From Candidatus Thorarchaeota archaeon (GTDB lineage Archaea > Asgardarchaeota > Thorarchaeia > Thorarchaeales > Thorarchaeaceae): a stretch of DNA of 64,000 nt. Shown here one piece after another: positions 17,844 through 22,610 of the stretch. Positions within the stretch are counted from its first letter, which is position 1; each line of letters opens with the position of its first letter. The stretch spans positions 32,001 through 96,000 of the forward strand of contig PRDH01000044.1 in assembly GCA_003345545.1 (NCBI GenBank), written 5' to 3'. The notes under the pieces are model-generated. The model saw only the letters and a list, made by a program, of their open reading frames with translations. It did no database searches and was not told the origin of the DNA. The translations under genes and the position numbers were made by a program.

Positions 17844-18203
17844 CTACTCTTCCGATATGGTAGACTCCTTTGAAGCACCCAACTCAGTGATAGATGGAAC
17901 TGAGCCATCATCTTCGAGCAGTTCGTACTTTCCTGAGCGACCCAATGAGAGCTGTACTTTTCCCTGCCACTCCTTTGCCCAACCGTCTTCGATCTTTATC
18001 ACCATTCCTGCAGACAGGTCATTGCCTTCATTGAAGCCCCAGAGAGAGAGGATTGCAGAACCAGAATCATCAGCCACAAGTACTTCCTTTAGCATCGTCT
18101 TGCGTCCTGCCCGTGTCTGAATCATTCTGGCCGGCGCCACAGATATCACTCTGACGATTAGATTTGAGATGTTCTTTCCTGGCTCAACTTCCACTAACTT
18201 CAC
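17844..18203 (-). CDS. ssb: single-OB-fold ssDNA-binding protein (crenarchaeal SSB-like)
   Basis: VRVISV, VADDSGSAILSLWG, GWAKEWQGKVQLSLG; short acidic tail. Confidence 0.82.
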   Translation of the reverse strand: MKLVEVEPGKNISNLIVRVISVAPARMIQTRAGRKTMLKEVLVADDSGSAILSLWGFNEGNDLSAGMVIKIEDGWAKEWQGKVQLSLGRSGKYELLEDDGSVPSITELGASKESTISEE

Positions 18204-20167: not shown

Positions 20168-20300
20168 GGCTACCTCACCAGTGTACGTAGTGGTTTGTGT
20201 GGTATGCTAGGGAAGCTCACGCAACATGAAGTAAGGTAGTATTGTCTTGATTAACTTGTTTTGTGTGTGTACAACTACAATATGCAGCATGACAAGGTTA

Positions 20301-20470
20301 GATGTTGGGGTTCAAAGAACCCCGAACATCCGTTGGAGCGTGTTCTTCGACCGGGGGCGGTAAAATTCGTTTATGCGCAAGAACAGTGCAGTAATCACTG
20401 CAATTAGGGACTAGAACTCGTGGGACCGTGTATTGCGAGTTCCTGACGGGGGAAGACCGCCACCCGTTTG
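20301..20470 (+). ncRNA. candidate structured non-coding RNA (unassigned family)
   Basis: Five consecutive stems in an ORF-free spacer plus loop-loop complementarity GGCGGT/ACCGCC; G-U extensions favour the + strand; boundaries approximate. Confidence 0.45.
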
Positions 20471-20568
20471 AAGTTCACACTACAGCAGACCTCGAATCGC
20501 CATAAGAAGCTTTCTGGTTCACCAAAAAAGGATAGTTATTTTCATTTTGTTGAATCGAGGTGTGATAG

Positions 20569-20604
20569 GTCTTTTTTCTTGTAATATTCATAAGAAAAAA
20601 AGAC
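20569..20604. terminator. AT-rich inverted repeat giving T-tracts on both strands (possible bidirectional terminator)
   Basis: GTCTTTTTTCTT-gtaatattcat-AAGAAAAAAAGAC, 35 nt past the stop of the 20639 gene. Confidence 0.5.
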
Positions 20605-20638
20605 ACAATTGTATGATACGGAACATGATGATTGTCAA

Positions 20639-21778
20639 TCAGCGGGGGAAGTTGTCTCGCAGAAGACGAAGGTGTTGATGGACCATCTCCATTGCCTTTG
20701 GATCATCAGGAGTCTTTTCGAGATCCGTCACCAGCGTCTGCAAGAAATACTCGGGGAAGAATAGTCTTACACGAATGTCATTAAGCAGGAATAGCCACTT
20801 GTCATATTCGCCTGAGGCACCCTTTCTGCGTTTTTCTGCGACTACCCTGAACTTCTTGAGGGTTTGGATTGCCTCCTTAAGCTCCTTCGGAGGAATGCCC
20901 AGCGTGGCCTCCAGTTCAGAGATATTTGCCGGGCGTCTTCTGAGTTCGCTGAGTGTATCATAACAGTCAGGATCTGCCAGGACTTGAGCGACTGATACAG
21001 TGTCTTCAGGGGTCTTTTGCCACTCCGTCAGGAATTCCAATACTTCTGACTTATACTCCGCCGCAAGCTCAGGATCCAAAACTCCACTAGCGGACTCCAT
21101 CGCCACGAGGGGCGGGGCTCTGAAGATTTCAAGGTCCTTTATCATGAAGACACACGTTCGACCAATCTCATCGACCCATTCCGTCTTTACTAGACCAAGT
21201 TCCTCAAAGGGGGCGATGATGGAGTCAATACTAACACTCGGAAGACCTGTGACCATCTTCAACCATTCTTCAAGTTCTTCTTTTGAGATACCACCTTTCC
21301 AGAGCTTGGGAAATACAGCCCGAGAAACCTCATCAGAGAACAATCGTGCCAGACGAGACTCATCAGTCATCCCAGCAAGTCTGATGATACGTCGGTATGT
21401 GTTGTCTAGCTCATCCTGAAGCTCTGCATCAGTCAATGCAACGACAGCATTTGTCAGAGGAGTCACAATCGACGTGATAGCAGCCTCATACATCTTCGGG
21501 TCTTCCGAAGGCGTCAGCAAAAGGGATACACAGTATTGCTCTTCCTCTCTCACTATTCCAGTATAATACGAAGCAACACCATATTCCTCACCGCCAATTC
21601 GGATACTGAGTGATGAAAATCCGGCTGTGGCATCACCCATGGCGTGAGACGTGAAGATACGCATTATCTCTGTATTAAGATCTTCACGGTAGTAGTCAGC
21701 AAAATCTGCAGGTACCTTCGCCTTCAGAACTGCTCCTATCTTTGAGTCCCAATCTATAAGCAGCATCGCTACGGGCAT
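20639..21778 (-). CDS. longin/uDENN-like domain protein with C-terminal winged-helix domains
   Basis: N-terminal LLIDWDSKIGAVLKAKVP (W/F-D-x3-G-x6-P start typical of uDENN/longin folds), YGVASYY..YCVSLLL strands; ISELEATLGIPPKELKEAIQTLKKFRVV wHTH; ATG 21778 preferred. Confidence 0.65.
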   Translation of the reverse strand: MPVAMLLIDWDSKIGAVLKAKVPADFADYYREDLNTEIMRIFTSHAMGDATAGFSSLSIRIGGEEYGVASYYTGIVREEEQYCVSLLLTPSEDPKMYEAAITSIVTPLTNAVVALTDAELQDELDNTYRRIIRLAGMTDESRLARLFSDEVSRAVFPKLWKGGISKEELEEWLKMVTGLPSVSIDSIIAPFEELGLVKTEWVDEIGRTCVFMIKDLEIFRAPPLVAMESASGVLDPELAAEYKSEVLEFLTEWQKTPEDTVSVAQVLADPDCYDTLSELRRRPANISELEATLGIPPKELKEAIQTLKKFRVVAEKRRKGASGEYDKWLFLLNDIRVRLFFPEYFLQTLVTDLEKTPDDPKAMEMVHQHLRLLRDNFPR

Positions 21779-21923
21779 TTCGCTTGTCTCCCAGTCCCTG
21801 GGGTTTGTTCCGCATAGAGCCAGAGCATGTACGGTTCCGGTAGTCACATATTAAAACCTTGTCACTAGTCGATTCGCAACCGTAATATCCTGGTATATAC
21901 AGCGCCTTAGGGGCTTAGGTATA

Positions 21924-22610
21924 TCATTCTTGTGATTGATTCTCCCTGCATTTGACTGTCTGTATTATCTCGCTGTGTATCTCAGCTACAACTGCATCGA
22001 GTGAATTCCCAGCATTAACGATTCTGAAGTTCCCACTGTCATGCTTCGCGATTTCAAGATACGCTTGGCGTACCTTCACAAGCCTGTCCAGCCGTTCGAA
22101 TTGTAGGTTTGCCCTATTCTCGCGCTTCGTTGCTCGAGCAAGTCCGACCTCGGCATCAACATCCAAGATGAAAACCACATCAGGTTCAGGAGCATGTATA
22201 TCCTCGCGATTCCTTCGCAGTATCTCCTGCCAAGGAACTCCAGTCGCTCCCGATTGATATGCACCAGTTGCAAAGAAATAGCGATCCATCAATACAAGTC
22301 TGCCAGAATCGAGGGCGGGAATTATGCGATTTTGAACATTCCATTCACGGTCTCTGATGAAAAGCTCAAGCTCTTCAGAAGGCGACAGTTCTCCTCGAGG
22401 AGACCTTGCTCTGATCTCCTTCCCCCACTGACTCTCGTTTGTAGGCTCTCTGAGCTGCAACACGTCGTAGCCTTCTTTTGTAAGACGTCTCTTGAGCCGA
22501 GAACATGCACAAGACTTGCCAGAGCCATCTATTCCCTCAAGAACGAAGAGAAATCCTCGAGGATCTCGACCAATTCTGCCTATCAAGCAATGAGTTCTCC
22601 TAGACGTCAT
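21924..22610 (-). CDS. tmk: thymidylate kinase
   Basis: LEGIDGSGKS, REP, MDRY....AYQ, PD..F.LDV, FE. Confidence 0.93.
   Translation of the reverse strand: MTSRRTHCLIGRIGRDPRGFLFVLEGIDGSGKSCACSRLKRRLTKEGYDVLQLREPTNESQWGKEIRARSPRGELSPSEELELFIRDREWNVQNRIIPALDSGRLVLMDRYFFATGAYQSGATGVPWQEILRRNREDIHAPEPDVVFILDVDAEVGLARATKRENRANLQFERLDRLVKVRQAYLEIAKHDSGNFRIVNAGNSLDAVVAEIHSEIIQTVKCRENQSQE

Follow-up and report, generated by a model that had tools for sequence, protein, structure and literature searches.

A candidate structured RNA gene restricted to one Thorarchaeota family and its possible pairing with the ribosome-binding site of a neighbouring NPRL2-like gene

The window analysed here is a stretch of 64,000 nucleotides (nt) of a Candidatus Thorarchaeota archaeon (contig PRDH01000044.1, positions 32,001 to 96,000). 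It contains a 471-nt spacer (20168-20638) that is flanked by two minus-strand genes and that, we are confident, carries a new stand-alone structured RNA gene on the minus strand, restricted to one Thorarchaeota family. For the function of this RNA, the best explanation we can offer is close to an even call, and it holds that the RNA acts by base pairing on the ribosome-binding site (RBS) of the gene upstream of it, called p402. In the following, G000 is the source genome of the window (assembly 93% complete), other G numbers are compared genomes, and L numbers are compared loci.

An initial annotation of this DNA had described the spacer as lacking a credible open reading frame (ORF) and as holding five stems, H1 to H5, a long-range complementarity, and a T-tract hairpin at 20569-20604. 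Our ORF scan found none of at least 60 amino acids (aa) within 20168-20638, all five stems and the complementarity are present, and the T-tract hairpin, which lies directly after the p402 stop codon, is real, although it is kept in the closest relatives only. For the plus strand of 20290-20520, the folding energy is -86.4 kcal/mol (z -4.26), a value that 0 of 200 shuffles equalled, and the minus strand of this segment gives a z of -2.76. With the RNA's own bounds (20295-20481, minus strand), RNAfold yields -65.9 kcal/mol and a z of -4.03, again with 0 of 200 shuffles as good, and both the minimum free energy (MFE) fold and the centroid fold are identical to the comparative model. A search of the whole window against Rfam gave no match at the gathering score and, at E<=10, chance-level matches only, so the novelty of the RNA stands. 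The proposal that the spacer encodes a genuine structured noncoding RNA without an Rfam family is thus borne out by the fold, by covariation, and by conservation across genera. Read 5' to 3' on the minus strand, the RNA has five helices, of which P1 and P2, two stacked closing helices, enclose the hairpins P3 and P4, whereas H1, the terminal hairpin on the 3' side, lies outside the P1/P2 closure. Its parts are listed below.

20295 to 20481, minus strand: RNA gene of about 187 nt, with the 5' end placed by the distance from the TATA-like box and the 3' end set just past H1
20470 to 20479, minus strand: 5' strand of P1, UGUG-AA-CUUC, pairing with 20339-20348
20456 to 20466, minus strand: 5' strand of P2, CGGG-U-GGCGGU, which is ACCGCC-a-CCCG of the initial annotation on the other strand; it differs fully between clades with the complementarity kept
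20444 to 20455, minus strand: junction CUUCCCCCGUCA, with the core CCCCGUC nearly invariant in the family
20414 to 20443, minus strand: hairpin P3, GGAACUCG/CGAGUUC, with a loop (20421-20435) that holds the invariant ACGGUCCCA and ends in ACACGGUCCCA
20403 to 20413, minus strand: P3/P4 junction UAGUCCCUAAU, with the second copy of the (G)GUCCC motif
20387 to 20402, minus strand: hairpin P4, UGCAGU/ACUGCA, variable, and short or missing in some genera
20362 to 20386, minus strand: junction with the conserved UCUUGCGCAU, then the U-rich AAUUUU just 5' of the P2 3' strand
20352 to 20361, minus strand: 3' strand of P2, ACCGCCCCCG (ACCGCC-CCCG), supported by the own-partner duplex test described below
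20339 to 20348, minus strand: 3' strand of P1, GAAG-AA-CACG; 5 of 5 modelled P1 pairs change on both sides across genera
20301 to 20338, minus strand: linker GCUCCAACG (20331-20338) and the 3' terminal hairpin H1 (20301-20330)

The long single-stranded segments of the core are nearly invariant, and the U-rich tract before the 3' strand of P2 is found in almost every genus. Optional parts sit at fixed sites, namely a 17-nt hairpin behind CCCCGUCA in some species, and P4. Some genera have an additional GGUCCAnnUGACC hairpin ahead of H1, and H1 itself is lengthened in some. From the initial set of stems, H1, H3 (P4 in our model), H4 (P3), and what had been called a 10-bp alternative helix (P2) are conserved across genera, but H2 and H5 are not; the latter two are present in the source genome, where they compete with the covarying P1 and P2, respectively. 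The suggested kissing loop or switch has to be given up, since the CGGGGGCGGT/ACCGCCACCCG complementarity on which it was built is the main long-range helix P2, which covaries wholesale between clades, and many genera lack the rival helix H5 or could not form it. We found no pseudoknot in the RNA that has support from covariation. A candidate between CCGU in the junction and ACGG in the P3 loop was rejected, as four genera have the loop UUGG with an unchanged junction. Pairing of UUGCGCAU with AUGCG of H1 as an antiterminator, which is possible in most genera and weak in the window's clade, was rejected as well, there being no conserved downstream gene. In G009 and G022 (L030/L029), a duplication of about 25 nt of GUGAAUCUUCAUGAA at the 5' end of the RNA creates two alternative 5' strands of P1.

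As judged from the aligned sequences, covariation is strong across at least nine genera. In an alignment of 19 sequences from nine genera, fitted to a covariance model named R1, 96% of the cells form standard pairs and 32 of the 42 pairs have changed on both sides; 0 of 500 shuffles reached any of the five measures used, and sliding the partners left 30-53% of the cells paired. The H1 helices are 97% paired in this alignment, with 8 pairs changed on both sides, and the modelled pairs of P4 change on both sides without exception (5/5), UGCCC/GGGCA being among the alternatives. Such a fitted alignment leans towards its model, hence two checks free of that bias were added. In a plain MAFFT alignment, the first and last pairs of P3 show exchanges between G-C, A-U, and G.U, and in distant genera the P3 stem is swapped wholesale, to CAGAGGCUU/AAGCCUCUG and AGAAACCUGU/ACAGGUUUUCU. 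The long-range complementarity is likewise replaced wholesale between the two clades of the genus (CGGGGGCGGT/ACCGCCACCCG versus CAGGATGCATGG/CCATGCAAACCCTG). In the second check, which needs no alignment, the 5' closing segment of each genome was duplexed with the 3' segment of every genome, and the mean energy was -21.4 kcal/mol with its own partner versus -11.5 kcal/mol across genomes, the own partner being best in 16 of 19 cases.

The strand assignment follows from several observations that point the same way. G.U pairs outnumber A.C pairs by 51 to 4 in the fitted alignment, in which 95.9% of the cells are paired on the minus strand versus 88.9% when read as plus. Strand-neutral G.U:A.C counts were 15:2 for H1 and 10:5 for P2, and P3 had 10 G.U and no A.C in the MAFFT-only alignment. 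The closing duplex is also stabler on the minus strand in 31 of the 38 orthologs. Gapped strand-neutral Smith-Waterman counts were uninformative or too noisy. Two further features lie between the RNA and p402.

20501 to 20517, minus strand: promoter-like box CCAGAAAGCTTCTTATG, consisting of a B recognition element (BRE)-like AGAAAG and a TATA-like CTTCTTATG, and ending about 20-23 nt before P1
20524 to 20604, minus strand: T-tract hairpin with T7 (20569-20604), followed by a T6 run (20524-20529); both lie after the p402 stop codon and ahead of the RNA promoter

The spacing of 20-23 nt is what is expected from an archaeal TATA box to the start site. At 20501-20515 the BRE/TATA-like box reads AGAAAGCTTCTTATG, and this exact pattern is unique in the source genome. 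Nearly all genera keep a box of the form CYAGRAAGNTTCWTATG upstream of the RNA, on the minus-strand side only, and the RNase P RNA gene of the source genome has a similar box, TTTTTATG, ending 29 nt before the start of its covariance model match. We read the BRE/TATA-like box, from its sequence and position, as the RNA's own promoter, and the T-tract hairpin together with the T6 run as the likely terminator of p402 in the source genome. No conserved plus-strand promoter was found; in several genera a convergent ORF for a GNAT acetyltransferase would have to contain one. The initial annotation had proposed a stand-alone RNA on the plus strand, but the minus strand is favoured by gene context and promoter box as well as by the numbers of G.U and A.C pairs.

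The RNA has a narrow distribution. BLASTN matches of the spacer were confined to its own genus, in which 18 of 24 genomes had one, and the best-kept core was 20400-20455. The covariance model R1, which was built from the second clade of the genus, matched the source genome at G000:C44:52284-52485 on the minus strand, and found one copy each in 26 of 28 genomes of the genus. It also matched 11 of the 18 genomes that represented eight further genera of the family, and none of 124 genomes from other families of the phylum. Weaker but clearly homologous copies are present at the syntenic site in five more genomes. When the motif pattern CCCCGT...GGTCCC...GTCCC was scanned over 400 genomes, it occurred in 52 of the 85 family genomes and in 8 of the 314 outside, where the matches were chance-like and lacked the P3 stem. 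On these searches, the RNA is a single-copy element confined to one Thorarchaeota family; the assignment of the lineage to Thorarchaeota agrees with the protein names given to orthologs of the neighbouring genes. Genome G011 has two full copies of the RNA (C103:172-384 and C21:38484-38715) and two copies of p402, on different contigs, and its RNA copies differ by the 17-nt hairpin insertion; most likely two strains have been binned together, the genome having 7% contamination.

Several known RNA classes were compared and rejected. The initial annotation had seen no clear signatures of signal recognition particle (SRP) RNA, RNase P RNA, or tRNA, and the archaeal SRP RNA model (RF01857), the archaeal RNase P RNA model (RF00373), and ARAGORN were indeed all negative in the window. 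RF01857 had no window match at the gathering score or at E<=10. It also found no match in G000 as a whole, which was the cause of an initial suspicion that the RNA might be SRP RNA, but SRP RNA is encoded at other loci in 26 of the 27 other genus genomes (for example at C3:175418 in G001, which has the present RNA at C1:148128). Because relatives carry a normal SRP RNA elsewhere, this RNA is not SRP RNA, and the SRP RNA gene of G000 is probably on an unassembled piece. RF00373 was without a match in the window, and the genome's own RNase P RNA lies at G000 C12:49445-49784 (151.9 bits). ARAGORN found no tRNA in the window (no dedicated multi-intron tRNA tool was run), the ends of the RNA are unpaired, since H1 is outside the P1/P2 closure, and the GGUUCG in H1 is a stem strand and not a T-loop. 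A C/D guide was dismissed, as there is no conserved C box and CUGA occurs on the plus strand only; an H/ACA guide was dismissed, as an ACA follows H1 in part of the genus only. No Rfam snoRNA matched at threshold. Words reminiscent of 5S rRNA (CCCGU, GAAC, ACGG, GGUCCCA) were discounted, as Rfam gave no support. Finally, for a riboswitch or 5' leader there is no stable co-oriented downstream gene and no Rfam riboswitch match at E<=10 on either strand. Archaeal SRP RNA and RNase P RNA are comparable in being stand-alone, single-copy, structured RNAs of 200-300 nt with strong archaeal promoters, but they differ in helix layout and both are encoded elsewhere.

The genes around the RNA bear on its possible function, and are as follows.

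20639 to 21778, minus strand: upstream neighbour p402, 379 aa, starting with MPVAM, with a longin-like domain and two winged helices
18269 to 20167, minus strand: Arf/Roc-like GTPase, 632 aa (Pfam Arf, 6e-21), with the start codon facing the spacer
L057 1705 to 2685, L066 1806 to 2759, and L058 1732 to 2676, convergent: GNAT insertions between the RNA and the GTPase gene

In every locus whose fetched stretch included the p402 stop codon, the RNA is co-oriented with p402 and lies 100-270 nt downstream of it. The p402 ORF was first called as 402 aa (20639-21847), with its stop codon facing the spacer; its orthologs have 379 aa. The protein is 82-99% identical in 76 of 76 family genomes, versus 42-76% for the GTPase, and relatives outside the family are at the level of paralogs only (about 30-37% identity), a single genome often having several of them. 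An AlphaFold2 model of p402 (confidence, pLDDT, 82) shows the longin-like domain and the two winged helices, and its best Foldseek matches are chains of about 400 residues from GATOR1 and from its yeast counterpart, the SEA complex (SEAC), as well as ArsR/SmtB regulators, all with weak scores. We take the GATOR1 and SEAC chains of this length to be the NPRL2/Npr2 subunits, and p402 is, on the strength of this model, a putative GTPase regulator resembling NPRL2.

The link between the RNA and the GTPase gene is looser. From the RNA to the GTPase gene, the distance is about 110-140 nt within the window's genus, and one other genus has about 250 nt. Three genomes that belong to two other genera of the family (G103, G083, and G139) have the GTPase gene about 1.1 kb away, behind a convergent gene for a two-domain GNAT acetyltransferase (ORF and Pfam) whose stop codon touches the 3' end of the RNA. 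G153 has a convergent ORF at the same place, recognized from the ORF only, and in G012 and G150 no GTPase gene is found within 1.5 kb downstream of the RNA. Because the GTPase gene is distant behind a convergent gene, or absent, in several genera, the RNA is not the leader of the GTPase mRNA, as the initial annotation had offered as its other reading. Between the RNA and the GTPase start (20180-20290, minus strand), the genus keeps a block ATCAAAATATACACAC...TTAATC, which is probably the GTPase gene's own promoter, and a GGTGA(GG) 8-10 nt before the TTG/GTG start acts as the Shine-Dalgarno (SD) sequence of this gene. Further out, the flanks encode a thymidylate kinase (21924-22610, minus strand; Pfam 5e-42) and a small OB-fold protein similar to Ssb/RPA (17844-18203, minus strand; below the Pfam threshold).

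The suggestion that the RNA acts on p402 comes from its repeated motif. GGUCCC is displayed 2-4 times per RNA in loops and junctions, that is, in the P3 loop, in the P3/P4 junction, and in extra loops in some genera, and the 5' untranslated region (UTR) of p402 contains the following element.

21788 to 21799, minus strand: AGGGACUGGGAG in the p402 5'UTR, a complement of the RNA's GUCCC motif fused to the SD sequence, 10-22 nt before the AUG (21778)

The GGGAC(C/U) in this 5'UTR is the exact complement of the invariant GGUCCC loop motif, and about 37 of the 42 distinct loci, representing about 10 genera, have a GGGAC(C/U)..GGAG box that is located 20-23 nt ahead of the p402 AUG. In G000, AGGGACUGGGA of the mRNA could form 11 consecutive pairs with UUCUAGUCCCU of the RNA, and these cover the SD sequence. 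The position after GGGAC also tracks the junction motif of the RNA, giving U:A in clade 1 of the genus and U:G in its clade 2, whereas other genera have C:G. The pattern GGGAC[CT]N0-2GGAG has 22 occurrences in the source genome, of which only the p402 copy is placed at a genuine start site. The other candidate, a GGGAC-SD box at G000 C47:17950, was discarded because a longer ORF encloses it. In the sister family, the p402 ortholog of G025 (65% identity) lacks the box and is not followed by the RNA. A conserved unpaired motif of the RNA is thus complementary to a conserved site at the RBS of p402 (-23 to -10), as in the class of base-pairing small RNAs (sRNAs).

On the explanation that we prefer, the RNA would be made from its own promoter and act in trans, with action in cis, as a 3'UTR of the p402 message, being less likely. 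Its exposed GGUCCC motifs would pair with the GGGAC(C/U)-GGAG box that overlaps the SD sequence of p402, and this pairing would occlude the RBS and thereby tune the amount of the putative GTPase regulator. That the RNA pairs with the p402 RBS, as the matching sequences suggest, is a tentative proposal that we would sooner doubt than accept. A number of points weigh against the overall explanation. The covariation between mRNA box and RNA motif represents one evolutionary path, with three A:G exceptions, and duplexfold of the RNA core against the p402 5'UTR gave a mean z of only -1.4 compared to shuffled UTRs, with 7 of 18 cases at p<=0.05. In genus g19 the box is shifted and imperfect (UGGAGACC). 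A five-helix fold with about 60 invariant unpaired nt exceeds the needs of a simple antisense RNA. Genera differ in whether oligo-T terminators follow H1 or separate p402 from the RNA, and the whole-molecule MFE is slightly lower on the G-rich plus strand in 25 of the 38 orthologs, although this measure does not discriminate as a strand test. Finally, the expression, ends, and strand of the RNA are predictions from genomic sequence.

One other complementarity was seen in the source genome. The segment 20453-20474 of the window, which belongs to the P1/P2 5' strand, has a 22-nt exact identity to a distant contig, at G000 C70:35455-35476 (L020; E 2e-5). The opposite strand of that match contains the final codons and the stop of a 60-aa ORF that has a hydrophobic helix at its N-terminus, and the corresponding mRNA would thus be perfectly complementary to positions 8-29 of the RNA. 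The match is the only one in the genome better than chance, and was not seen in the closest relative.

The closest analogues of an RNA acting in the proposed way are found in bacteria. RsaE/RoxS, RNAIII, and the UCCCCUG anti-SD element in the icaR 3'UTR are antisense regulators of Staphylococcus and Bacillus that use C-rich motifs; in Staphylococcus aureus, icaR is subject to an interaction between its 5'UTR and its 3'UTR, the element being directly downstream of its target gene. The present RNA resembles these regulators in having several unpaired C-rich motifs in loops and junctions that are complementary to G-rich sequence at or next to an SD sequence and, as with icaR, in its position directly downstream of the gene that would be targeted. 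It differs in that the regulators are bacterial, share no sequence homology with it, and use UCCC and not GGUCCC. It is also more elaborate, with five helices, a closed core, and invariant junctions, and it has one candidate target, for which the pairing is predicted. Sponges of the CsrB/RsmZ type likewise repeat a short motif in hairpin loops, with a copy number that varies between lineages, but they carry another motif and consist of a string of similar hairpins instead of a fixed core, and we know of no CsrA-like partner in these archaea. The closest analogues (antisense RNAs with C-rich loops, anti-SD 3'UTR elements of Firmicutes, and motif-repeat sponges) are functional only, and none is homologous. 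Orphan structured RNAs, such as the motifs of Weinberg et al. 2010 (PMC2864571), are comparable in having been found via conservation and covariation, in being lineage-restricted, and in having no assigned function; none of those in Rfam 15 matches, and the present RNA is limited to one Asgard family with a specific neighbour gene. We found no description of such an RNA in Asgard archaea in the literature.

Pairing with the p402 RBS has a serious rival in the idea that the repeated loops and the U-rich tract bind protein, although on balance we regard this rival as unlikely. The RNA would be a scaffold or sponge, and part of a ribonucleoprotein (RNP), in which the GGUCCC loops, the CCCCGUC and UUGCGCAU junctions, and the U-rich, Sm-site-like tract bind one or more proteins, for example an Sm-like archaeal protein (SmAP) or the winged-helix neighbour. 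This would fit the variation in GGUCCC copy number from 2 to 4 between genera, always in loops, the presence of the single-stranded U-rich tract in nearly every genus, invariant junctions that are far longer than an antisense seed requires, and the strict synteny with a protein bearing two winged helices. However, the candidate partners are hypothetical, the p402 fold resembles NPRL2-type GTPase regulators and ArsR DNA binders and not known RNA binders, and the exact complement of the motif at the p402 RBS would be left unexplained.

It is less probable still that the RNA is a cis-acting 3'UTR element of the p402 mRNA whose GGUCCC loops fold back onto its own SD sequence, possibly with a processed or internally promoted sRNA form in addition. 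The constant orientation and distance of 100-270 nt downstream of p402 would suit such an element, T-run terminators between p402 and the RNA are missing in many genera, and the complementarity to p402's own RBS counts here just as it does for action in trans. On the other hand, a strongly conserved BRE/TATA-like box lies at promoter distance in nearly all genera, and G000 has T7 and T6 runs between p402 and the RNA.

We consider it improbable, more so than a 3'UTR element, that the RNA is catalytic or binds a ligand, as an orphan ribozyme or trans-acting aptamer in which the conserved junction nucleotides form a tertiary core. A multi-helix junction with many invariant unpaired nt, and variable peripheral hairpins at fixed sites (the 17-nt hairpin behind CCCCGUCA and the optional P4), are in line with this, but no Rfam ribozyme or riboswitch matched even at E<=10, the pseudoknot candidate CCGU/ACGG fails where the loop is UUGG, leaving none that covariation supports, and there is no conserved downstream gene to regulate. 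The two initial readings, a plus-strand RNA or a riboswitch-like GTPase leader that switches between H5 and the long-range helix, are largely refuted and very improbable, since, despite the good plus-strand fold (z -4.26), the slightly lower plus-strand MFE in 25 of 38 orthologs, and a GTPase gene within about 130 nt in the window's own genus, A.C is far rarer than G.U on the minus strand, a conserved plus-strand promoter is missing and would in several genera have to lie inside the GNAT ORF, the GTPase gene is absent or 1.1 kb off behind an opposite-strand gene in six genomes, and H5 and H2 are not conserved across genera.

To our knowledge, few structured noncoding RNAs are known in Asgard archaea beyond the universal ones, and none of their regulatory RNAs has a proposed target. 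The RNA described here combines a complex and well-covarying fold with a clear promoter-like box and a strict gene neighbourhood, and it comes with a concrete and falsifiable target, the RBS for an NPRL2-like protein that is strongly conserved and encoded next to a small GTPase. If the proposed pairing is true, this would, as far as we know, be the first sRNA-target pair in Asgard archaea, and would mean that a eukaryote-like GTPase-regulatory module is controlled at the RNA level. If the pairing idea fails, the RNA is still a good candidate for a new RNP or a functional RNA fold. A more far-reaching idea, which we put forward as speculative and unlikely, is that the RNA is an integral partner of the archaeal NPRL2-like/small-GTPase module, either controlling the longin-winged-helix regulator post-transcriptionally or being bound by that regulator as an RNA subunit. 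Were this so, there would be an RNA layer, with a fold unlike any described RNA family, in an Asgard forerunner of eukaryotic GATOR/Rag-type GTPase control.

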